Both the position numbers and the translations under genes were made by a program. From positions 83,648-147,647 of the forward strand of contig JAJYLR010000001.1 in the NCBI GenBank assembly GCA_021787535.1: a DNA stretch of 64,000 bases, in the 5' to 3' direction. Positions 37,864 through 60,011 of this stretch are shown here, piece after piece. A model generated the notes under the pieces. It worked only from the letters and a program-made list of their open reading frames with translations. It did not search any database and was not told where the DNA came from. Source of the stretch: a bacterium (GTDB lineage Bacteria > Patescibacteriota > CPR2 > UBA1875 > JAJYID01). Every line of letters starts with the position of its first letter. Position 1 is the first letter of the stretch.

Positions 37864-40395
37864 ATGAGTAAGAATATACTTTGGTTTAAAGAAGTCGGGA
37901 AAGACGACGGAGCAAGGGTTGGCGGTAAGGGTGCAAATCTTGGTGAGATGTTTAGTGCCGGTCTCCCGGTGCCGAACGGTTTTATCGTCACGGCGCAGGC
38001 TTACTTTGATTTTCTGGATCATACCGGGCTCAAGGCAAAGATTGCAGAAGCGCTTGAAGGCTTAAATGTTGAGGATTCCAAGGATCTGCAAGCGAGAGCG
38101 GAAAAGGTGCAGAGTTTAATAAAGAAGGCTGATTTCCCCCAGGACTTAGCTAATGAAATTACCAAAAATTACCACAAGCTTTCTGAAGAAGGCCAAAAGG
38201 AAAAGGGAAGGAGCAAAAAAGAAGATTCCGGTCAAGCCGGAATGACGGAAGATTCCCCCAATACCCAATACCCAATACCCAATACAGATCGACTGGATTC
38301 CCGCCTGCGCGGGAATGACAAGGCGGGCGTATATGTGGCTGTTCGTTCGAGCGCGACGGCCGAGGATTTGGCTGATGCGTCATTTGCCGGCCAGCAGGCG
38401 ACATACCTGAACATTCTTGGCGATATTCCTGTTTTGCATGCGGTTTTAAAATGCTGGGCGTCGCTCTTTGAAGCCAGAGCTATTTATTATCGCGAAGACA
38501 AAGGGTTTGACCAGCTGGAAGTGGGTATTGCAGTGCCGGTGCAGAAAATGGTCAACTCCGAAAAAGCGGGAGTTATGTTTACCATTGATCCTACAAATAA
38601 CGACATGGAGCATATTTCCATCGAAGCGGCTTACGGGCTTGGCGAAGTGGTTGTTCTGGGCGCCGTTACCCCGGATCGTTATCTGATTGATAAAAAAACC
38701 AGGCAAGTGACCGACAAGGAAATTCACAAACAGACTTGGATGCTAACCCGCGAAGGCGGCAATGCCGATACGGATAACACGGAAGACATCTCAAAGAATG
38801 GCGTCCCCGTACCGGAGGATAAGCAAGGATTGCAAAAGCTGAGCGATGACGAAATCTCACAGCTTACCGATCTGGCTTTGAAAATTGAGAAGCATTACGG
38901 CAAACCGCAAGACACAGAGTGGGCGGTCGAGGGCGGAAAAGTTTACATGACCCAGTCGCGACCGATAACGACATTGCCAAGTAAAGATGATCAGGCAGGA
39001 ATGGATTCCGGACAAGCCGGAATGACAAATGAAGGGCAGGATATTTCCGAGGCCAAAGTGATATTAAAAGGTTCGGCGGCATCAGTCGGGATGGCCGGGG
39101 GACCGGTAAAGATCATTCATTCGCCGAGCGAGATAGACCAGATCTTGGACGGCGATGTTTTGGTCACAGAAATGACCACCCCGGATTTCGTGCCGGCTAT
39201 GAAGAGGGCTTCGGCTATCGTTACTGATGAAGGCGGACGGACCTGCCATGCGGCCATTGTTTCAAGAGAACTTGGTATTCCTTGCGTTGTCGGGACTGAG
39301 ACAGCTACAACTACGCTTAAGGATTACCCGAAAGTAACCGTCGATGGCAAAAGCGGCGCGGTTTATGAAGGTAAGGTTAAATCTCAATCGGATTCTGGAC
39401 AGGATTCTGGACAAGCCAGAATGACGAGCTCAGAGCCAGCGCCGATAACTGCCACGAAAATTTATGTCAACTTGGGAGAACCGGAACTGGCCGAGAAAGT
39501 AGCGGCTCGCGACGTCGATGGGGTGGGCTTGCTGCGCGCTGAGTTCATTATCATGGAGTCCATCGGCGAACATCCCAAGAAAATGATCAAGGAAGGGCGC
39601 CAAGAGGAATATATTACAAAACTAGCCGAAGGACTGGAAACATTTGCCCGGGCCTTTGATCCAAGACCTGTTGTTTATAGGGCTACTGATTTTAAGACTA
39701 ACGAATATCGAGGGCTAAAGGGCGGAGAAGAGTTCGAGCCCGAGGAAGACAATCCGATGATCGGCTATCGCGGCTGCTTCAGATACTTAAAAGATCCGGA
39801 AGAATTTTCATTGGAGCTTGAGGCGATTAAAAAAGTGCGCCAAAACCACAGAAATCTCCACCTGATGATTCCCTTTGTTCGCCGCACCGATGAGTTTCAA
39901 AAAGTTAAAGCAATGGTCGAAAAGAGTGGATTAAATAAAGAGAGCGACCCCGACTTTAAACTTTGGATTATGGTGGAGGTGCCATCGGCTGTTATCGAAA
40001 TAGAAAAGTTCTGCCAGATGGGCATCGACGGCGTGTCAATCGGCTCAAATGACCTGACCCAGCTGACTTTGGGATTAGATCGGGATTCAAATCTTGTGGC
40101 AGAGGAGTTTGATGAGCGAAACGATGCCGTCCAATGGATGATTAAAAGAACGGTGGAAACATGCAAAAAATACGGCGTTACTTGCTCGATCTGCGGCCAG
40201 GCGCCAAGCGTTTATCCCGAAGTAGCGCAGAAAATGGTGGAGTATGGCACCACATCCATTTCCGTAAACCCCGATATGATTGAGAGCACGCGCAAACTGG
40301 TGGCGCAGGTTGAAGAGAAGATTTTGATGAATGAAATGAGCGCAGTTCAGGCGAAATTGTCTGAATTGGAACAAAAGATAGAGACAAATGAGTAA
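37864..40395 (+). CDS. ppsA: Phosphoenolpyruvate synthase (pyruvate, water dikinase)
   Basis: N-terminal ATP-grasp VGGKGANLGEM, phosphohistidine domain GGRTCHAAIVSRELGIPCVVG, and a C-terminal PEP-utilising domain SICGQAPSVYPE...SVNPD. A ggaggg RBS is present. It contains three in-frame repeat-element insertions. Confidence 0.85.
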   Translation: MSKNILWFKEVGKDDGARVGGKGANLGEMFSAGLPVPNGFIVTAQAYFDFLDHTGLKAKIAEALEGLNVEDSKDLQARAEKVQSLIKKADFPQDLANEITKNYHKLSEEGQKEKGRSKKEDSGQAGMTEDSPNTQYPIPNTDRLDSRLRGNDKAGVYVAVRSSATAEDLADASFAGQQATYLNILGDIPVLHAVLKCWASLFEARAIYYREDKGFDQLEVGIAVPVQKMVNSEKAGVMFTIDPTNNDMEHISIEAAYGLGEVVVLGAVTPDRYLIDKKTRQVTDKEIHKQTWMLTREGGNADTDNTEDISKNGVPVPEDKQGLQKLSDDEISQLTDLALKIEKHYGKPQDTEWAVEGGKVYMTQSRPITTLPSKDDQAGMDSGQAGMTNEGQDISEAKVILKGSAASVGMAGGPVKIIHSPSEIDQILDGDVLVTEMTTPDFVPAMKRASAIVTDEGGRTCHAAIVSRELGIPCVVGTETATTTLKDYPKVTVDGKSGAVYEGKVKSQSDSGQDSGQARMTSSEPAPITATKIYVNLGEPELAEKVAARDVDGVGLLRAEFIIMESIGEHPKKMIKEGRQEEYITKLAEGLETFARAFDPRPVVYRATDFKTNEYRGLKGGEEFEPEEDNPMIGYRGCFRYLKDPEEFSLELEAIKKVRQNHRNLHLMIPFVRRTDEFQKVKAMVEKSGLNKESDPDFKLWIMVEVPSAVIEIEKFCQMGIDGVSIGSNDLTQLTLGLDRDSNLVAEEFDERNDAVQWMIKRTVETCKKYGVTCSICGQAPSVYPEVAQKMVEYGTTSISVNPDMIESTRKLVAQVEEKILMNEMSAVQAKLSELEQKIETNE
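38221..38325. repeat. Composite in-frame insertion in ppsA: type A half-element (gattccggtcaagccggaatgac), (CCCAATA)x4 heptamer, and type B element (ggattcccgcctgcgcgggaatgac)
   Basis: Read directly from the sequence. It is translated as EDSGQAGMTEDSPNTQYPIPNTDRLDSRLRGNDKAG. Confidence 0.85.
39003..39028. repeat. Type A half-element (ggattccggacaagccggaatgacaa) in frame in ppsA
   Basis: Translated as DSGQAGMT. Confidence 0.8.
39391..39425. repeat. Type A half-element with a 12-bp internal duplication (gattctggacag-gattctggacaagccagaatgac) in frame in ppsA
   Basis: Translated as SDSGQDSGQARMT. Confidence 0.8.
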
Positions 40396-47231: not shown

Positions 47232-49571
47232 TTGATTGAAAATTCAAAAATCGGAGGGGCTTTGCTAGATCGTTTCTTCAATCCAAAGAGTGTAGCTGTT
47301 ATCGGGGCTTCTCATCATAAAGAGAAGCTTGGGTTTTTGGTTTATGACAATATCAGAAAATACGGTTATAAAGGAAAACTTTATGGAGTGAATATCAAGG
47401 GCGGTTCCGCACATATTTCGCGTAAAAAATCAGGAGCGCAAAATATGTGCGGAATTCCACTCTACAAAACTGTAGGCGATATCCCTGGGCCGATAGATTT
47501 AGCTGTTGTGGTGATACCTGCGAAAGCTGTACCTCAAATAGTTAAAGATTGCGGTAAAAAAGGAATAACTTCTGTCATTATTATCTCGGCCGGGTTTTCT
47601 GAAACTGGAGCAGAAGGCAAAAAGTTAGAGGAAAAAATTGCCGATTTGTCACATAAATACGGTATCAGAATCTTGGGGCCGAACTGTCTCGGCATCATCG
47701 ACTCTTGGAGCAAAATGAACGCCTCTTTTGCCGAAAGTATGCCGGACAAGATGAAGATTTCTCTTCTTTCCCAGTCAGGAGCCATCTGCACGGCTATTTT
47801 AGACTGGGCCAATAGCGAAGAAATCGGTTTCTCCAGATTTATTTCTTTGGGCAATAAGCTTGATATCGATGAAAATGATGTCTTGGCTTATCTAGCCCGT
47901 GACACAAAAACCAAAGTTGTCCTGGCATATCTCGAAAGCATTGCCGATGGCCAGAAATTTATGGATAATGCTAGAAATCTTGCCTTGAAAAAGCCATTTA
48001 TCATGGTGAAGTCAGGCCGAACCAGCGAAGGCGCCAAAAGCATCTCTTCTCATACGGGCAGTATTGCCGGGTCGGATATTGTTATCGATACCGCTCTTCG
48101 CCAGAGCGGAGTGATACGGGCTGAGAGCTTAGAGGACCTCTTTGATCTGGCAAAAATATTTGCCTTTTCACCGGAAATGAAAGGCAAGAACGTTGCTGTT
48201 ATTTCAAATGCCGGCGGTCCGGCAGTTATGCTTGCCGATACGATTGGTCAAAGCCGCTTAAAGCTGGCTAAGTTTGAGCCAAAAACCCGTAAAATTCTAG
48301 AAGAGACATTGCCTCCTGAAGCTGCGACTCATAATCCTGTAGACGTCATCGGTGATGCCAGAGCCGATCGTTATGAAACTGCTACTTGCGAGGTTTTAAA
48401 AGATGAAAATGTTGATGCGGCCATAGTTGTTTTAACACCCCAAGTTATGACAGAGATTGAAGCGACAGCTAAAGTCATTAACAAGGCAAAAAAGTACGGA
48501 AAACCTTTGGCGGTATCTTTTATTGGCGGAGAAAAAGTCGGAGATGGCAGGAAAATTCTCGAAGACTTTGAAATACCTTCATATGAGTTTCCGGAGAGAG
48601 CGATCAAAGCGCTAGAAGCACTATTTGAGTACTATGAATTTAAGAGACACTATGGTCTTTGTCATTCCGACTGCCACCACGTGAGTTGCAAGCGGAGGAA
48701 TCCCTTAAAGAATAGCCAATTTCCAATAACCAATGACCAATCAAGCTCTAATAATCAGATGTCAAACAAAGGTGGTCATTCTGGGGACGGCAGGACCCCG
48801 GAATCTAATACAGATAAGGATTCTGGACAGGTCAGAATGACGAACAACAGGCAAAAGGTATCTGAAATTATCGGACCGGTATTTAACCGGCGCCAAAAGC
48901 TTATCACAGACGGAAGTTCGAGCGCTTTTGATGTTTTTGACGCCTATGGTATCAGCACTATCAAAAGAGCATATGGTCTGGGACTAAAGGATTTGAAAAA
49001 GAAATCGGAAGAACTGGGGTTTCCGCTTGTTGCGAAGACTTGCGCCGAAGGCGTTTTGCACAAAACGGATATTGGCGGAGTCAAGTTGGGTATGAGAGAT
49101 GAAAGCGAACTGCAAAAAGCGTATTTTTCAATTTGTAATAAAGTGCGAAAAGCTGGTTTCGAGGAGGGTTCGGATCGGGTTGACATTTATAAACAAGAAG
49201 AGGACGGCGTCCAAATATTTCTGGGCGCAAAAAAGGATTCCAGTTTTGGACCGCTCATAATTTTTGGTTTAGGCGGAATATTCGTCGAGGCGCTTAAAGA
49301 TTTTTCATATAGAATCGCGCCGGTTACGCATACCGAGGCCAAGAGAATGATCGGCGAAATAAGATCGCAGAAAGTTCTAAACGGTTTTCGGGGCATGCCG
49401 GAAGTTGATCGGGACAAAGTGGCAGATGCAATCGTTGGTTTGTCCCAGCTTATGCTCGACTTCCCGGAAATCAAAGAAGTAGATATTAATCCCTTAATGG
49501 CAACGGATAAAAAATGCGTTGCCATAGACGGAAAAATAATTTTGGACTTAGAAGTAGACCATGGTTTCTAA
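47232..49571 (+). CDS. Acetyl-CoA synthetase (ADP-forming), fused alpha/beta type. The real start is probably the TTG at 47265, which has a GGAGG RBS.
   Basis: The CoA-binding N-terminus FFNPKSVAVIGAS, succinyl-CoA-synthetase-like flavodoxin domains and a C-terminal ATP-grasp. A ~60-aa repeat-element insertion sits in the inter-domain linker. Confidence 0.85.
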   Translation: MIENSKIGGALLDRFFNPKSVAVIGASHHKEKLGFLVYDNIRKYGYKGKLYGVNIKGGSAHISRKKSGAQNMCGIPLYKTVGDIPGPIDLAVVVIPAKAVPQIVKDCGKKGITSVIIISAGFSETGAEGKKLEEKIADLSHKYGIRILGPNCLGIIDSWSKMNASFAESMPDKMKISLLSQSGAICTAILDWANSEEIGFSRFISLGNKLDIDENDVLAYLARDTKTKVVLAYLESIADGQKFMDNARNLALKKPFIMVKSGRTSEGAKSISSHTGSIAGSDIVIDTALRQSGVIRAESLEDLFDLAKIFAFSPEMKGKNVAVISNAGGPAVMLADTIGQSRLKLAKFEPKTRKILEETLPPEAATHNPVDVIGDARADRYETATCEVLKDENVDAAIVVLTPQVMTEIEATAKVINKAKKYGKPLAVSFIGGEKVGDGRKILEDFEIPSYEFPERAIKALEALFEYYEFKRHYGLCHSDCHHVSCKRRNPLKNSQFPITNDQSSSNNQMSNKGGHSGDGRTPESNTDKDSGQVRMTNNRQKVSEIIGPVFNRRQKLITDGSSSAFDVFDAYGISTIKRAYGLGLKDLKKKSEELGFPLVAKTCAEGVLHKTDIGGVKLGMRDESELQKAYFSICNKVRKAGFEEGSDRVDIYKQEEDGVQIFLGAKKDSSFGPLIIFGLGGIFVEALKDFSYRIAPVTHTEAKRMIGEIRSQKVLNGFRGMPEVDRDKVADAIVGLSQLMLDFPEIKEVDINPLMATDKKCVAIDGKIILDLEVDHGF
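48661..48842. repeat. Composite in-frame insertion in the acs linker: type C variant, a CCAAT-type heptamer stretch, and a full type A element (gtcattctggggacggcaggaccccggaatc-N13-gattctggacaggtcagaatgac)
   Basis: Read directly. It is translated as CHSDCHHVSCKRRNPLKNSQFPITNDQSSSNNQMSNKGGHSGDGRTPESNTDKDSGQVRMT. Confidence 0.85.
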
Positions 49572-50037: not shown

Positions 50038-51141
50038 GTGGCAACTCAAACTAAAACTAAAACGGTTTTAATGACCGGGAATCAAGCGGTGGTGAAAGCG
50101 GCTTTGGCTGTCGGTGCTGAGATGTTCAGCGGTTATCCGATAACGCCGACTACTGAAATTCTGACCGAATGGTCAAAAGCGGCCGAAAATAATAAAGATC
50201 TCATATTTTTGCAGACCGAGGATGAGCCGGCGGCCGGCTTTGTGATGATTGGCGGAGTTTCCATGGGCAAAAAGGCTTGGACGGCGACAGCCGGCGTCGG
50301 GCACGTTCTGATGCAGGATCCGCTCTCTATGGCAGAAGCTATGAGAATCCCGACGGTGACTTATATCGGCCAGCGCGGCGGTCCCTCAACCGGCACAGTG
50401 ATCTATTCCCAGCAAGAGCTGAATCTGGCTCGGATGGGCGGAAACGGCGAAGGCCTTCGCATCGTCTTTGCGCCTTCGAACCTGCAAGAACTCTACGATC
50501 TGACCATTAAGGCATTTAATGTAGCTTGGAAATACCGGTTTCCGACATTTATTCTATCCGACGGATATCTTGCCAAAACATATGGAGAAATTGAGCTTTG
50601 GCAGCCAAACAAATCGGAAATCGTGCCGACCGAAAGTTTCTTTTTGAATCCCAAAACAAGTCCGAACAATATCAGAAACTGCTACTCTATGGAGGTTGAG
50701 CTTTATGACCAACTGCTCAAAGACTTTGCCGATTATGCCAAAATGTCAGAGAAAGTTGAAGAAAGCGAGCTACTTGGCGACAAGAAGACAAATCTTTTAG
50801 TTTGCGCCTGGGGTGCGGTAGGAAACTCGGCTAAAACAGCGCTTAAGGCACTGGAAAAACAAAACATTTATTTTAAACTTTTCCGTCCGATTACTCTTAG
50901 GCCGTTTCCGGCAAAAGATCTGCAAAAAGCGGCGGAAGGAGTGACGGATATCCTCATTTTAGAGTCAGCAAACGGGCAGTTTGGCCGCATTGTGCGAGAA
51001 TCTTTGTATGGCACGACCGAAGCCGAAGTGCATCGCCTGTACAAACCGGCTATGGGCATCATGCCGGAAGAAATTCAAGCCAAAGTTAAGGAAGTATTTA
51101 AATTGGAGGATTCTGGACAAGCCAGAATGACGCAATCATGA
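50038..51141 (+). CDS. 2-oxoacid:ferredoxin oxidoreductase alpha subunit (pyruvate/2-ketoisovalerate type)
   Basis: LMTGNQAVVKAALAVGAEMFSGYPITPTTEI matches the PorA/KorA N-terminus. The C-terminal tail EDSGQARMTQS is encoded by a type A half-element. Confidence 0.85.
   Translation: MATQTKTKTVLMTGNQAVVKAALAVGAEMFSGYPITPTTEILTEWSKAAENNKDLIFLQTEDEPAAGFVMIGGVSMGKKAWTATAGVGHVLMQDPLSMAEAMRIPTVTYIGQRGGPSTGTVIYSQQELNLARMGGNGEGLRIVFAPSNLQELYDLTIKAFNVAWKYRFPTFILSDGYLAKTYGEIELWQPNKSEIVPTESFFLNPKTSPNNIRNCYSMEVELYDQLLKDFADYAKMSEKVEESELLGDKKTNLLVCAWGAVGNSAKTALKALEKQNIYFKLFRPITLRPFPAKDLQKAAEGVTDILILESANGQFGRIVRESLYGTTEAEVHRLYKPAMGIMPEEIQAKVKEVFKLEDSGQARMTQS
51108..51131. repeat. Type A half-element (ggattctggacaagccagaatgac) forming the 3' end of the OFOR alpha gene
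   Basis: Identical to the copy at 39403-39425. Confidence 0.85.
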
Positions 51142-52677: not shown

Positions 52678-52922
52678 TGCGTGATTGGAAAGGCAAAATT
52701 TATTCAGATAGCCAGAAAGCATGGACAAACTTCGCCGAACTCTGCAAGGGTTGCGGACTATGCATAGAGAAATGTCCGCAGAAATGTTTGGCATTTGATA
52801 AAACAAGGACCAACCATTACGGTACCGATACCGTAAAGTGCGATATTGGCAAATGTATCGCCTGCGACATTTGCGAAATCAACTGCCCGGATATGGCGAT
52901 AAGAGTGGATCGGAAAAGTTGA
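52641..52922 (+). CDS. 2-oxoacid:ferredoxin oxidoreductase delta subunit (2x[4Fe-4S] ferredoxin)
   Basis: CKGCGLCIEKCP and CIACDICEINCP cluster motifs. It overlaps the gamma gene. Confidence 0.8.
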   Translation: MDQRWQEGGFCMMRDWKGKIYSDSQKAWTNFAELCKGCGLCIEKCPQKCLAFDKTRTNHYGTDTVKCDIGKCIACDICEINCPDMAIRVDRKS

Positions 52923-53003
52923 CTTTCTAGCCAGTTTATCATATAATTATCAAAAGAGGAGAAACCTCTTTTTTCGCATCTTTGTCAACTTAAGGAGAAT
53001 CTG

Positions 53004-53249
53004 ATGATTTATGTGCTGCAGGTGATTTTTTTCTGGATTTTTGCAATAGCCGGCGTTGTGGGAACTGTAATCGGATTTTCGAGTGCTATGTCAGGCGCGA
53101 TTATTGGTATCGCGCGGCCAGACATAGTAGACATAGATCCCAGCGGCAAAGAGGAACGTTGGATGAAGAGAGGGATTGCCGTAATGCTGATCGGTGCTGC
53201 AGGGGCTTTCCTCGTGTCTCCTTACTGGTCAGCGTTCGGTATGCTATAA
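53004..53249 (+). CDS. Small membrane protein (81 aa)
   Basis: Two TM helices and an aaggag RBS. Confidence 0.35.
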   Translation: MIYVLQVIFFWIFAIAGVVGTVIGFSSAMSGAIIGIARPDIVDIDPSGKEERWMKRGIAVMLIGAAGAFLVSPYWSAFGML

Positions 53250-53343
53250 GATCGTTCCCCAGTTTTTCTTTTCACATGGATAGCGAGCCACCGGGTTCAT
53301 ACTGCCGCTCTGACAAGGGCGGCAGTCTTCTTTTAAAAAAGTG

Positions 53344-53371
53344 TTGACAAAAATTTTGTATATGATATAAT
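53344..53371 (+). promoter_or_regulatory. Strong sigma70 promoter with an extended -10 (TTGACA-16-TGaTATAAT)
   Basis: ttgaca at 53344-53349 and tgatataat at 53363-53371. It drives the GC-rich non-coding unit downstream. Confidence 0.6.
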
Positions 53372-53377
53372 GATTTT

Positions 53378-54098
53378 CATTGCACTTTGAGAATATTCGC
53401 GGTTTATACAGCTGTAATTGGTTTCTAGATTAGAGATCAGTTATAGCTGTATAAGCAAAAGTTTCCTCTCGGGTGCCACTGGAAAGTGGGACGAGGGGAC
53501 CCTCTGTACTCCCAGGGGGATACATGAGCAACCCGGAGATTGGGGAAGAGGTTGTTCTGAAAGGGAGCCGAATATAGCAGCCCCAACTGCGTATGTCGGG
53601 CCAGGTCCTCTGGTTACTCCATGAAAAACCTCATGTGGAGGTCAATGATAGAAGGAGGATATCCTGATCTAGTTTTACTGGTCTTCTATCGTTGCATCGT
53701 TAAAAGGAGATATGCACGGCAACCGCAATCTCGCCCCGAAGGAGGGAATAAAGCGGTACCAGTTGCAACTGGACGTGCGTGGGTTCTCTATTCAGTCAGG
53801 AGAATAGTTAATCTACGCTTTCAAAGATTCCCAAGGGCTTGGCTTTTATTGAAGTTCCCTCCGATGGCGGAAGGAGAGCGCTGCTCTCATATTTCTTGCC
53901 GCCCAGTGCGCCACATATGTTGGGGTACTGATCTGTGTGAGGGGGTCGGAGCTATTGGGGTCGCGGTTCTCCCGTCCTCCTTAAGGAGGCTTAGAACGAA
54001 CCGAAGTCGGTAGGGTGCCCAAATCCGGAGCCCTGAATACGCACCCTGCCCAACTAGTAAGGGACGCCTCCAATTGGAGGCGTCCCGATTTCTTTTTG
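53378..54098 (+). ncRNA. Candidate large structured ncRNA (~0.7 kb) of unknown class: promoter-to-terminator unit, GC-rich, no credible ORF
   Basis: ~52% GC against a ~40% background. Multiple GNRA-capped hairpins (ctggaaagtgg, gttctgaaaggg). Long-range complementarity cgggtgcc (53470s) with gcaccctg (54040s) would close the molecule. It ends in a perfect hairpin plus U-run. The overlapping ORFs are Arg/Pro/Trp-rich junk. Bacterial RNase P P4 motifs and tmRNA ends were looked for and not found. Confidence 0.3.
54061..54098 (+). terminator. Rho-independent terminator
   Basis: gggacgcctcc-aatt-ggaggcgtccc (an 11-bp perfect stem) followed by gatttcttttt. Confidence 0.8.
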
Positions 54099-54139
54099 TA
54101 TACTTACTCTCACTTCCCAAATCCGCTATAATAGAATGC

Positions 54140-56647
54140 ATGGCGGATTTTTTAGATGATTTAAATGAGATGCAGAAAGAGGCGGTCAAAACTACCGAAG
54201 GGCCCCTTCTTATTTTAGCCGGGGCCGGCAGCGGCAAGACCAAAGCCCTGACTTACCGCATCGCTTACTTAATTAGCGAAAAAAATGTCGATCCGGAGCG
54301 GATTTTGGCCGTGACTTTTACCAATAAAGCGGCCAAGGAAATGGTCTCGAGAGTTGAGAAACTACTCTCGAGAAATAACCAATTTCCAAGTCCCAATTTC
54401 CAATCAATTTTCAATGATCAAAATTCAAAAAGTCTGGATTCCCGCCTTCGCGGGAATGACAAGGAGGGAAAGGGATCCGTCGACTCCCATTCGGCTGCGC
54501 TCAGGGCAGGCTTTCGCGAAGTCGCTCAGAATGACAGAAAAGGGGAGCAAGAAGTCTGTCGAAATGACCCACGCACCGAAAATGGTGCGGGGCAAGCAAT
54601 ACAGAATACCGAATACTCAATACAGCATACTGTCACCGGCCGCAGGCCTGTCATGGGTACTTTTCACTCTGTTTGCGTCAAAATTCTACGGCGGGAGATA
54701 GGCCATCTCGGCTATAAATCGAGCTTTACCATTTATGACTCGGGCGACTCCAATAGGGCGGTAAAGATTGCCATGAAAGAACTCTCTATTGATGAGAAGA
54801 AATTCAATCCCAGAACAATACAAAATTACATCTCCTCGGCAAAAAATGAGCTGATTGGCGAGAAAGAGTACGCTGCGCTCGTCAACGGCTATATCCAGGA
54901 AATGGCTTCCAAAGTGTACTTTGAATACCAAAAAATTCTTAAAAACGCCCATGCGCTGGACTTTGACGATCTGATTATGAAGACGGTAGAAATCTTCCAA
55001 AAATTTCCAGAAATCTTGGAGAAATATCAGAAGCAATTCAAATATATTCATATAGATGAGTATCAGGACACAAACCACGCCCAGTATGTTTTTTCAAAAC
55101 TGCTGGCAGCTAAACATGAAAATATCTGTGTGGTGGGGGACGACTGGCAAAGTGTTTATGCATTTCGCGGGGCGAACTTCCAGAACATCCTAGATTTCGA
55201 GAAGGATTATCCGAATGCAAAAGTGGTCAAACTTGAGCAAAATTATAGATCAACAAAAACCATTTTGGATGCTGCCCATCATATTATCAAAAAGAATGAA
55301 AACCGAAGCGACAAAGAGCTCTGGACTGAAAACATTCTGGGTGTTCCTATCCTGACATTTGAGGCAAAAGACGAGGTAGATGAAGGAAGATTTATCATTC
55401 AGGAAATTTCGAGTTCAGCCCGCGATCTTTCTGATTTTGCTGTTTTATACCGCACAAATGCCCAGTCAAGAAGCCTTGAAGAACAGTTTCTAAAAGCCGG
55501 CATGAAGTACAGGATTTTCGGAGGAGTGAGGTTCTATGAGCGAAAGGAAATTAAAGATATTATCGCATACCTCAGGTTCATTCAGAATCCAAATGACTGG
55601 GTGGCGCTCGAGCGGATTATCAATGTTCCGTCGAGAGGAATAGGGGCAGCTAGTTTGAAAAAAATAAAGGAATTTTTTTCAAATAATTTGCAATTTCCAA
55701 TTTCCAATTTTCAATCAAATTCCAATAACCAAATTCCAAACAAAAGCCGTCATTTTGGGGACGATAGGACTCCAGAATCAAACTCGGATAAGGATTCTGG
55801 TCAAGCCAGAATGACGGAAGGTAAGGGTGACTTGGTTGGTATACTGGAAAAAGTGAAATTCAGCAATATTCTTTCCGGCAAAGCGCTAGCCGGATTTAAG
55901 TCATTTATGAAAGCCATTATTGAGCTCGAAGATCAGAAAGATAAATTGCAACTGGTGAAGTTCATCGATCAGGTTATGAAAAAAACCGGCTACTATGATT
56001 CGCTTGATGACAAAACTATCCAAGGTGAAGAAAGGCAGGAAAACCTGAAAGAGCTTTTGTCGGTAGCAGAGGAATTTGTCAAGGATAGAGAAGACTTCGG
56101 TCTTGAGGATTTTCTCGAGGAAGTGGCTCTTATTTCCGATATTGATAACTACTCGGAAGACGAGCAGTCCGTGGCGCTTATGACCTTGCATTCGGCCAAA
56201 GGGCTCGAGTTTCCCTGTGTTTTCATTGCCGGGATGGAAGAGGGGATCTTTCCGCATTCTCGTTCACAGCTTGATATCGAAGAAATGGAAGAAGAGCGCA
56301 GATTGGCATATGTCGGTATCACAAGAGCAAAAGAAAGAGCGTATCTGGTTAGCGCTCGCAGGCGTCTTCTCTATGGAAACTATCAGTCCAATCCGGCGTC
56401 GAGATTCATCTCTGATATTCCCGGTGAGCTCAAGAAAGACATTAACCGGTTTGAAACGTCATTGGACTCAAAGATTTATGAAAAGCAAATCCCGCAGTTT
56501 GCTCCCGGAGAAAAAGTTCTGCATGACAAGTTTGGCGTAGGCATAGTCCAAGACGTCAAAGGCGATGAGATGACTGTATCTTTTGAAAAGGTGGTGGGTC
56601 TCAAAGTTCTCTCTACCATTTACGCGCCGATTGAGAAGATAAGATGA
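54140..56647 (+). CDS. uvrD: ATP-dependent DNA helicase UvrD/PcrA (SF1). The ORF-track start at 54074 lies inside the upstream terminator; the ATG at 54140 is preferred.
   Basis: Motif I LLILAGAGSGKTKALTYRIAYLI, then GTFHSVC, DEYQDTN and later SF1 motifs. tataat at 54127-54132 sits 7 nt before the ATG, implying a leaderless mRNA. There are two large in-frame repeat insertions. Confidence 0.85.
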   Translation: MADFLDDLNEMQKEAVKTTEGPLLILAGAGSGKTKALTYRIAYLISEKNVDPERILAVTFTNKAAKEMVSRVEKLLSRNNQFPSPNFQSIFNDQNSKSLDSRLRGNDKEGKGSVDSHSAALRAGFREVAQNDRKGEQEVCRNDPRTENGAGQAIQNTEYSIQHTVTGRRPVMGTFHSVCVKILRREIGHLGYKSSFTIYDSGDSNRAVKIAMKELSIDEKKFNPRTIQNYISSAKNELIGEKEYAALVNGYIQEMASKVYFEYQKILKNAHALDFDDLIMKTVEIFQKFPEILEKYQKQFKYIHIDEYQDTNHAQYVFSKLLAAKHENICVVGDDWQSVYAFRGANFQNILDFEKDYPNAKVVKLEQNYRSTKTILDAAHHIIKKNENRSDKELWTENILGVPILTFEAKDEVDEGRFIIQEISSSARDLSDFAVLYRTNAQSRSLEEQFLKAGMKYRIFGGVRFYERKEIKDIIAYLRFIQNPNDWVALERIINVPSRGIGAASLKKIKEFFSNNLQFPISNFQSNSNNQIPNKSRHFGDDRTPESNSDKDSGQARMTEGKGDLVGILEKVKFSNILSGKALAGFKSFMKAIIELEDQKDKLQLVKFIDQVMKKTGYYDSLDDKTIQGEERQENLKELLSVAEEFVKDREDFGLEDFLEEVALISDIDNYSEDEQSVALMTLHSAKGLEFPCVFIAGMEEGIFPHSRSQLDIEEMEEERRLAYVGITRAKERAYLVSARRRLLYGNYQSNPASRFISDIPGELKKDINRFETSLDSKIYEKQIPQFAPGEKVLHDKFGVGIVQDVKGDEMTVSFEKVVGLKVLSTIYAPIEKIR
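54370..54655. repeat. ~285-bp composite in-frame insertion in uvrD between helicase motifs I and Ia: heptamer stretch, type B element, an inverted type C variant, and AATAC-type repeats
   Basis: Translated as a ~95-aa insert: SRNNQFPSPNFQSIFNDQNSKSLDSRLRGNDKEGKGSVDSHSAALRAGFREVAQNDRKGEQEVCRNDPRTENGAGQAIQNTEYSIQHTVTGRRPV. The type B copy at 54436-54463 matches 20736-20763. Confidence 0.85.
55684..55814. repeat. Composite in-frame insertion in uvrD: (AATTTCC)-type heptamer stretch plus a full type A element (gtcattttggggacgataggactccagaatc-N13-gattctggtcaagccagaatgac)
   Basis: Translated as NLQFPISNFQSNSNNQIPNKSRHFGDDRTPESNSDKDSGQARMT. Confidence 0.85.
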
Positions 56648-59289: not shown

Positions 59290-60011
59290 TGCTGTATGTA
59301 GTTTCTACTCCGATTGGTAATCTGGATGACATCACTCTTCGCGCGCTCGAAACCTTAAAGAATGTCGATCTTGTTGCCTGCGAAGATACGCGCCATACAA
59401 AAATCCTGCTTGATAAGCATAGTATCCCTTTTTGTCATTCTGGGGACGGTAGGACGCCAGAATCTGATTCTGGGCAAGCCAGAATGACGAGCCGGTCACG
59501 GCTCGTCAGCTATCATCAGCATTCAGGGTCAGTAAAAACCGAGAAAATTCTAACGATGCTGAAAGATGGCAAAGATGTTGCTCTTGTGACTGATGCCGGT
59601 ACGCCCGGTATTTCTGATCCTGGCAGTAAGTTAGTTGCCGAAGCAGCAGCAGATGGTATCGAGATTACATCCATTCCGGGCCCTGCCGCCTTTGTGAGTG
59701 CTTTAAGCGTTTCTGGATTTGACACTTCTGAATTTATTTTTATCGGATTTCTTCCTCACAAAAAGGGACGGCAAACAAAGCTGAAAGAAATAAGCGGTGA
59801 AAAGCGGACAGTTGTGTTGTATGAATCGGTACATCGGATAAAAAAGTTGTTCGGAGAGCTGTCAGAAATTATTCCAAACAGAGAGATATGTGTTTGCCGT
59901 GAACTGACTAAGAAATTTGAAGAGATCTATCGTGGAAAACCATCAGAGCTCATGGATCAAATTATAGAAAAAGGAGAATTTGCGGTTGTTATAGGAGGCA
60001 GAAATGATTAA
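59289..60011 (+). CDS. rsmI: 16S rRNA C1402 2'-O-methyltransferase (tetrapyrrole-methylase fold)
   Basis: LYVVSTPIGNLDDITLRALETLKNVDLVACEDTRHT matches the RsmI N-terminus. It contains one in-frame type A insertion. Confidence 0.85.
   Translation: MLYVVSTPIGNLDDITLRALETLKNVDLVACEDTRHTKILLDKHSIPFCHSGDGRTPESDSGQARMTSRSRLVSYHQHSGSVKTEKILTMLKDGKDVALVTDAGTPGISDPGSKLVAEAAADGIEITSIPGPAAFVSALSVSGFDTSEFIFIGFLPHKKGRQTKLKEISGEKRTVVLYESVHRIKKLFGELSEIIPNREICVCRELTKKFEEIYRGKPSELMDQIIEKGEFAVVIGGRND
59434..59488. repeat. Full type A element, short form (gtcattctggggacggtaggacgccagaatc-tgattctgggcaagccagaatgac), in frame in rsmI
   Basis: Translated as CHSGDGRTPESDSGQARMT. Confidence 0.85.

Follow-up and report, generated by a model that had tools for sequence, protein, structure and literature searches.

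Organization of the locus

In the window, by which is meant the whole 64-kb stretch of DNA analysed here, a hypervariable slot (52923-54139) lies between a ferredoxin gene and uvrD/pcrA. It holds a small open reading frame (ORF) followed by a GC-rich segment with transcription signals of its own. The ORF (53004-53249, + strand) encodes a predicted membrane protein of 81 aa and, with its own promoter at 52919-52947, represents a separate cassette in the same variable slot. As the ORF is also closed by its own terminator (53301-53326, + strand; an 11-bp stem with 7 GC pairs, then a T tract), the segment downstream of it forms a separate transcription unit. That unit opens with a + strand promoter at 53344-53371, composed of the -35 box TTGACA (53344-53349), a 16-nt spacer, TG (53363-64) and TATAAT (53366-71). 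It scored 12/12 plus the extended -10 in a promoter scan, which bears out the extended -10 promoter (TTGACA-16-TGaTATAAT) reported in the initial annotation. Judging from the promoter position, the 5' end of the RNA would fall at C/A 53378-79. The unit is closed by an intrinsic terminator (54061-54086, or 54061-54097 with its U tract, + strand) of the form GGGACGCCUCC-AAUU-GGAGGCGUCCC. Its 11-bp stem contains 9 GC pairs and is followed by a T tract, so that the terminator previously noticed before uvrD is genuine in form. Promoter and terminator enclose 718-721 nt (53378 to ~54095/54098).

At 0.508, the GC content of the segment exceeds the window mean of 0.425 (sd 0.043, 720-nt windows). This places it in the top 1.6% of such windows and agrees with its earlier description as GC-rich. 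A repeat check found no further copy of the element in the 64-kb window, and the element is not composed of the abundant short hairpin repeats of this genome. The Shine-Dalgarno-like AGGAG occurs 6 times in the 721 nt at 53378-54098, compared with 1.3 per kb across the window; by eye, 1-2 occurrences are present in the related elements of loci L094 and L059 described below, and the enrichment is probably not a family feature. The locus was also recovered in an independently sequenced and assembled 1413-nt contig (L057) of Logan run SRR13170411, a run of DNA or RNA. The contig is 100% identical to window positions 52874-54286 and covers the 81-aa ORF, the entire RNA and the start of uvrD.

Downstream, uvrD/pcrA occupies 54140-56647 (+ strand) in the ORF list and served as the synteny anchor. 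It is preceded by a conserved promoter region (54098-54139, + strand; GTATACTTACTCTCAC...CGCTATAAT), copies of which flank cassettes in relatives. The ATG at 54140 sits 7 nt past TATAAT at 54128-33, which is compatible with the leaderless uvrD described earlier. The coding sequence of uvrD itself contains hairpin repeats (GATTCYGGnCAAGCCRGAATGACr and GGATTCCCGCCTkCGCGGGAATGACAAGG) together with AT-rich CCAATTTCCAAT tracts. Such repeats lie in frame within long ORFs at 54354-54600 and 55680-55830 (uvrD), 48657-48846, 51092-51141 and 59449-59493, with further in-frame positions at 38224, 39004, 39403, 20722 and 38281. The ORFs concerned include uvrD, an acyl-CoA-synthetase-like gene, the C-terminus of an oxidoreductase alpha subunit and an rsmI-like gene, and the encoded peptides include, for example, DSGQARMT. 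This arrangement resembles the Rickettsia-type palindromic elements inserted in coding sequence. Several relatives have a UvrD that is about 130-150 aa shorter (703-710 versus 835 aa), and the absence of the repeat inserts would fit this difference.

Conserved flanks and variable contents

Regions upstream of uvrD were fetched from about a dozen relatives with UvrD identities of 61-78%, uvrD being the synteny anchor. The UvrD of the window is 73% identical to a protein named 'candidate division WS5', which puts the organism close to that lineage. The gene order is conserved, namely a 2-oxoacid oxidoreductase operon, the ferredoxin gene, the slot and uvrD, and the slot is syntenic in L001, L058-L066 and L090-L098. 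Its contents are highly diverse. The slot is empty in L060, L063 and L095, where uvrD directly adjoins the ferredoxin gene. L001 carries a 164-aa ORF, an IS and a nucleotidyltransferase gene, as well as a truncated uvrD start. L058 holds a homologue of the 81-aa ORF and a 102-aa Cys-rich ORF; that homologue, a 78-aa protein with 75% identity, is the sole relative of the 81-aa ORF, and no RNA follows it. Small ORFs occupy the slots of L064, L065 and L090, whereas a Tsp45I-type restriction enzyme with its methyltransferase is found in L096-L098. Small membrane ORFs and DUF308 proteins are also among the contents, and Pfam gave nothing informative on the slot ORFs beyond a weak alpha/beta-hydrolase fragment in L059. 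RNA-type elements are located in L059, L094 and L062. The element is absent from the syntenic site in L060, L063, L095, L001, L064, L065, L090 and L096, and a UvrD scan of genome contigs returned 56 loci, none of which had the RNA. The element is cargo of the hypervariable slot between the ferredoxin gene and uvrD. As a separate observation, the UvrD proteins of L001 (3992-7408) and L096 (3501-7175), 1138 and 1224 aa long, contain an intein (Hint and Intein_splicing); the UvrD of the window has none.

The three RNA-bearing relatives share different parts of the window element. In L094, contained in run SRR29054604, a promoter of the form TTGACA-17-TGATATAAT is followed by a match to nt 2-102 and 186-432 of the window RNA; this element terminates without the last 270 nt, and a 118-aa ORF cassette lies between it and uvrD. 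L062 conversely has the last 270 nt alone, with the stop codon of a 94-aa membrane ORF before them and a terminator after them. In L059, whose UvrD is the closest to that of the window, promoter and leader are arranged likewise, and an ORF-less body of ~620 nt follows. This body showed no relation to that of the window by nhmmer or by covariance models (CMs) R2 and R3, so that the shared part is limited to the leader and the initial architecture of domain 2. The RNA similarity has been kept between hosts whose UvrD proteins are 69-74% identical, and it counts in favour of an RNA gene because neutral DNA would be scrambled at this distance. Cassettes may nevertheless have spread horizontally, in which case the host divergence overstates their age.

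The uvrD promoter region (GTAyACTTACTCTC...CGCTATAAT) is duplicated around cassettes, at 2470-2510 and 2940-3000 in L094 and at 2790-2830 and 2950-3000 in L062. These duplications suggest recombination at the uvrD promoter region as the route by which cassettes are gained or swapped.

Coding potential and searches for known families

An ATG-initiated ORF of 130 aa (53621-54013, + strand) lies inside the element and was judged spurious. No relative was found at E <= 10 among 5.8 billion proteins, where its own sequence is absent too; it has no Pfam match, and no counterpart was found in the elements of L094, L059 and L062. The same search served as a probe for spurious ORF calls in homologous RNAs, none of which turned up. 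In the homologous elements, the longest + strand ORFs are no more than 60 aa and begin at TTG, and the gap runs in the homologue alignments are mostly not multiples of 3. Furthermore, tblastn with all slot proteins revealed no similarity to the element. The earlier statement that the segment has no plausible ORF was imprecise in that the 130-aa ORF exists, but it holds for coding signal, with no relatives, Pfam match or conservation. A protein-coding homologue, which the initial annotation had named as evidence against an RNA, was likewise missing at E <= 10 among the 5.8 billion proteins.

Rfam 15 gave no match at gathering level in the entire 64-kb window. At E <= 10, only chance hairpin-type matches to miRNA and sRNA models appeared in 53200-54250, the best of them reaching 26 bits (E 0.009) where the gathering score is 63. 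Across the window and the homologous loci, the matches were miRNA-like chance hits on the long hairpin and one weak hit within the uvrD coding region. The models of RNase P, tmRNA, group II introns, GOLLD, ROOL, OLE, HEARO and raiA had no match in 53200-54250 at E <= 10, and those of GOLLD, ROOL, OLE, HEARO and raiA had none in the homologous elements of L094, L059 and L062 either. RNase P RNA of type A or B was rejected for want of a covariance-model match and because, unlike a housekeeping gene, the element is absent from the syntenic site in close relatives. A tmRNA was sought with ARAGORN, which reported none in the window, in agreement with the Rfam tmRNA model. An ORF-less group II intron was rejected as well, with no match to Intron_gpII or group-II-D1D4 at E <= 10; a domain-V-like stretch at 53569-53598 has, by eye, a CCCCAA loop and not a GNRA loop. 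The initial annotation had proposed a GOLLD/ROOL-like RNA, an unusual RNase P RNA or a group II relic, with a comparison against the RNase P, tmRNA, GOLLD, ROOL and group II models of Rfam as the check. This comparison yielded no relevant match, and the family guesses fail since Rfam 15 offers no match to any suggested family even at E <= 10.

Mobile DNA was searched in the same manner. No match was obtained by blastn against phage and plasmid collections or by exact-motif scans for the conserved motifs in viral contigs. A scan of metagenomes and one viral scan used gapped patterns, in which variable gaps inflate chance, and all 23 loci recovered were chance matches. No reverse transcriptase, IscB/TnpB or recombinase gene lies next to the element.

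Modular architecture and compensatory changes

The element is, judging from sequence comparison, a mosaic of separable modules, comprising a leader, a variable domain, a 262-nt core and a 236-nt 3' module. The 5' leader (53378-53401, + strand) bears the motif CAUUGnnCUUUGArrA, which is kept in the window, L094 and L059 and has one exact occurrence in the entire window. In all three RNA cassettes, CAUUG begins exactly 7 nt past the -10 element. A boxA-like UGCACUUUG lies at 53381-53389 within this leader, and the three cassettes bear UGCACUUUG, UGUACUUUG or UGUCCUUUG at +4 to +12. The motif is identical in 7 of 9 positions to UGCUCUUUA, the boxA of E. coli rrn operons (PMC2724277), and is kept in the three homologues, although this consensus is that of E. 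coli rrn and may not be that of the host. By a rough estimate, a 7/9 match would arise by chance in ~3% of 25-nt leaders.

The leader is followed by a long 5' hairpin (53402-53456, + strand) of 26 bp in the window, 22 bp of which are conserved, with 5 G-U pairs. Among its 22 pairs in three sequences, 4 were changed on both sides, and 2 of the 66 cells were broken. CM R1, built for the leader, scored 91-98 bits on the + strand and 22-35 bits on the - strand (98 versus 30 in the window); the + strand excess arises because G-U pairs work in the + strand RNA alone. A distant version of the leader was observed in the 5' UTRs of small membrane ORFs in L062 (2148-2232) and L064 (2483-2575), where yAUUGAACCUUGA is followed by a long hairpin and an A-rich linker up to the ribosome-binding site. 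These CM matches outside RNA cassettes are weaker (E 0.007 in L064 and 0.13 in L062). The leader may be a module of 5' UTRs at large, not confined to non-coding RNA (ncRNA), and it seems to be portable, serving coding and non-coding cassettes.

Next comes an A-rich linker (AAGCAAAAGUUUC) with the variable domain (53457-53562, + strand), delimited by the MFE structure and homologue comparison. The domain opens with a CU-rich/GA-rich helix, and its size and sequence differ in L094 and L059. It also holds the sole GNRA hairpin of the MFE structure (GGAA, 53481-84), so the several GNRA-capped hairpins previously reported were an overstatement. Similarly, the previously described long-range complementarity between the 5' and 3' ends was not recovered, as no helix joins the ends in the MFE structure.

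The middle core (53563-53824, + strand), 262 nt with 8 helices, is shared with L094 at 60% sequence identity (nhmmer E 3e-8). Its structure was written by hand from helices visible in the window and L094, and CM R2 was built on the window alone; it matched L094 at 2128-2430 with 38.5 bits and E 2e-11. In this comparison, 93.8% of the cells are paired and 17 of the 61 pairs are compensatory, compared with 0-3 compensatory pairs and 33-40% pairing in slid controls. Conserved loops are GCAG-CCCCAA-CUGC (53577-90), UCCUGAU (53662-68) and GUCAGGA (53795-801), the latter two being mutually complementary. The 3' module (53825-54060, + strand; 236 nt) has a multi-helix junction and a long hairpin; AGGGCUU (53834-40) is a possible pairing partner of the hairpin loop GGAGCCCU (54027-34). 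The module corresponds to 2513-2797 of L062 with 70% identity (nhmmer E 2.6e-17; CM R3, 83.6 bits, E 6e-23), and it was not found by CM R3 in L094 and L059. Here 97.4% of the cells are paired, and compensatory changes affect 12 of the 63 pairs (0-2 in slid controls).

In both modules the stems vary and the loops are kept, namely GCAG-CCCCRA-CUGC, GUCAGG, UCCUGAU and GGAGCCCU. The CCCCAA loop at 53581-86 may pair with UUGGGG at 53540-45, and in L094 an A-to-G change in the loop is accompanied by a matching U-to-C change in its candidate partner. The three loop pairings (53662-68/53795-801, 53581-86/53540-45 and 53834-40/54027-34) were read from the sequence and carry no statistics. The initial annotation had suggested a covariation analysis against related genomes, which gave compensatory changes in 4/22, 17/61 and 12/63 pairs for the three modules versus 0-3 in slid controls. 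These counts are pairwise, with 2-3 sequences and one or two independent homologues per module, and come from alignments fitted to the window-derived structure, free of phylogenetic statistics.

Folding energies agree in part. The full 721 nt has an MFE of -296.6 kcal/mol (z = -9.0), most of which is owed to the 26-bp 5' hairpin and the terminator; when both are removed, the core has z = -3.4 on the + strand and -2.3 on the minus strand. The middle core (53563-53824) gives z = -4.2 (+) and -1.6 (-), and coding controls lie near 0. The L059 element reaches -10.6 in full and -3.6 for its core, whereas the L094 core is thermodynamically unremarkable (z = -0.4) and the 3' modules on their own give z = -1.7 and -0.8.

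Interpretation and alternative explanations

Taken together, 53378 to ~54095 probably constitutes a stand-alone gene for a non-coding and highly structured RNA of ~718 nt, belonging to an uncatalogued and narrow family of WS5-like bacteria. At sequence level, the features expected of a generic structured ncRNA gene are present here, including its own promoter and terminator, the lack of a conserved ORF and a compensated structure. This reading is supported because the structure is compensated in homologues and coding signal is lacking. Of the ~0.7-kb structured ncRNA first described, the general idea survives on the same two grounds; its portrayal as one indivisible large RNA does not.

The element could be decaying, non-functional DNA, a remnant of former cassettes in a recombination hotspot whose promoter, terminator and hairpins owe their presence to chance or recent ancestry. 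The rapid turnover of the slot has left remnants such as the duplicated uvrD promoter copies and the truncated uvrD start of L001, the family is tiny and patchy, the core z of -0.4 in L094 is unimpressive and the L059 body is unrelated to that of the window. However, substitutions fall in compensated pairs (17/61 and 12/63 versus 0-3 in slid controls), stems vary under conserved loops, G-U pairs make the fold strand-specific and the promoter is a perfect consensus. As no frame shows similarity to slot proteins or to 5.8 billion proteins either, decay is considered unlikely. The element might also be a strongly diverged or degenerate version of a large RNA already described (RNase P, tmRNA, group II intron, OLE, GOLLD, ROOL, HEARO or a transposon guide RNA). 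Its size and GC contrast resemble those classes, and a slot prone to mobile DNA would suit such an origin. This origin is extremely improbable given that Rfam, even with permissive filters and E <= 10, has no relevant match and ARAGORN no tmRNA, that the element is missing at the locus in close relatives, unlike housekeeping RNAs, and that neither an adjacent reverse transcriptase, IscB/TnpB or recombinase gene nor a blastn match in phages and plasmids or an exact-motif match in viral contigs was found.

The remaining alternatives tie the RNA to a neighbouring gene. As a cis-regulatory leader of uvrD, it would be a long sensor RNA whose terminator governs read-through; it lies on the same strand directly upstream of uvrD in the window and L059, and its terminator ends 40 nt before the uvrD -10. 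Such a role is very unlikely, as uvrD keeps its own conserved promoter, adjoins the ferredoxin gene in the RNA-less L060, L063 and L095, and is separated from the RNA by the 118-aa ORF cassette in L094; moreover, the 3' module follows a different gene in L062, and no alternative antiterminator pairing is present in the MFE structure. There is equally little to recommend a regulatory partner of an adjacent small membrane protein gene, of the type I toxin-antitoxin-like or antisense kind, despite the frequency of small hydrophobic ORFs in the slot (81 aa in the window, 94 aa in L062, 111 aa in L064), the position of the 3' module after the L062 ORF and the related leaders before the L062 and L064 ORFs. 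The 81-aa ORF homologue of L058 has no adjoining RNA, neither the L094 nor the L059 RNA adjoins an ORF of this kind, and the genes are tandem and non-overlapping. In addition, complementarity to neighbouring mRNAs is no greater than in shuffled controls by a crude RNAduplex comparison, and the ORFs, at 78-111 aa, exceed typical type I toxins, which are shorter than 60 aa.

Proposed mode of action

For the preferred reading, a non-coding RNA gene, a mode of action can be sketched. Among the long non-coding transcripts that boxA/Nus complexes shield from Rho are rRNA and CRISPR arrays (PMC7665894; PMC5725501). In view of this protection and the boxA-like match, itself modest, the leader is proposed as an antitermination signal: UGCACUUUG would act like boxA and recruit NusB/NusE, which would let RNA polymerase finish a long untranslated transcript despite Rho. 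The 22-26-bp perfect stem downstream would mark a site for RNase III processing or serve to stabilise the 5' end. Perfect stems of this length are of the size cleaved by RNase III.

The body of the RNA most likely works in trans, in folded form, as a scaffold or RNA-only effector, with the conserved loops UCCUGAU/GUCAGGA and CCCCAA/UUGGGG making putative tertiary contacts. Trans action is a conjecture, since no conserved protein partner or target of the RNA was found in this analysis. The element would be accessory and exchangeable in function, not part of the housekeeping set; a role of this kind, perhaps in genetic conflict, is suggested because the slot elsewhere holds a restriction-modification system and mobile-element genes. 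A bolder, rather doubtful extension is that WS5-like bacteria possess portable RNA cassettes in which a shared leader (consensus promoter, boxA-type motif and RNase III-type stem) precedes interchangeable bodies, shuffled modularly at a hotspot of defence-island type beside uvrD and acting as RNA-only conflict effectors, for example in anti-phage, anti-restriction or addiction functions.

Comparison with known systems

Bacterial RNAs of more than 400 nt with complex folds are rare, and most known classes are ribozymes, RNP scaffolds or unexpected RNA assemblies. In Rfam 15 and a literature search, no folded RNA above 400 nt was described from WS5 or CPR-type lineages. A new structured RNA class from an uncultured lineage, with very few representatives, is a credible reading of the present comparisons. 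Like the large ornate ncRNAs (OLE, GOLLD, ROOL and raiA), the element spans several hundred nt, is multi-domain and ORF-less, exceeds its surroundings in GC content and has its own transcription signals. Those RNAs, too, often reside in accessory or mobile DNA, and their function is not deducible from context. The element differs from them in matching no family by sequence or structure, in being far narrower (3-4 loci found) and in its mosaic nature, with the core and the 3' module apart in different genomes. Additionally, blastn searches of phage and plasmid collections and exact scans of viral contigs for its conserved motifs did not turn it up. OLE RNA has the protein partner OapA, whereas the element has no associated protein.

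The second likeness is to the boxA/Nus leaders known from rRNA operons, lambda nut sites and CRISPR arrays, which the element resembles in having a U-rich, boxA-like motif (UGCACUUUG, against UGCUCUUUA in E. coli rrn) within 15 nt of the predicted start of a long untranslated transcript. In lambda nut (PMC2724277), a spacer separates boxA from a stem-loop downstream, and the same order is seen after the boxA-like motif here. The rationale would be shared with CRISPR arrays, whose non-coding transcripts are shielded from Rho by boxA (PMC7665894). Differences lie in the 7/9 identity to the E. coli rrn sequence, in a stem of 22-26 bp that is far longer than boxB and in the weaker version of the leader that precedes protein-coding cassettes. 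If the boxA-like leader is functional, Nus-factor antitermination would extend to an accessory ncRNA in an uncultured, deeply branching lineage.

Finally, the locus resembles defence islands and integration hotspots, in which fixed flanks, here the ferredoxin gene and uvrD, enclose contents that differ in nearly every relative; the cargo of the relatives includes a restriction-modification system, an IS and a nucleotidyltransferase gene. Compared with hotspot cassettes, no integrase or attC-like site was identified at this slot, and the cassette borders show duplicated copies of the uvrD promoter region instead. Moreover, the cargo in the window is an RNA gene and not a protein system. The element would be a candidate RNA class with the unusual trait of exchangeable domain modules, the entire gene being carried as the cargo of an island.
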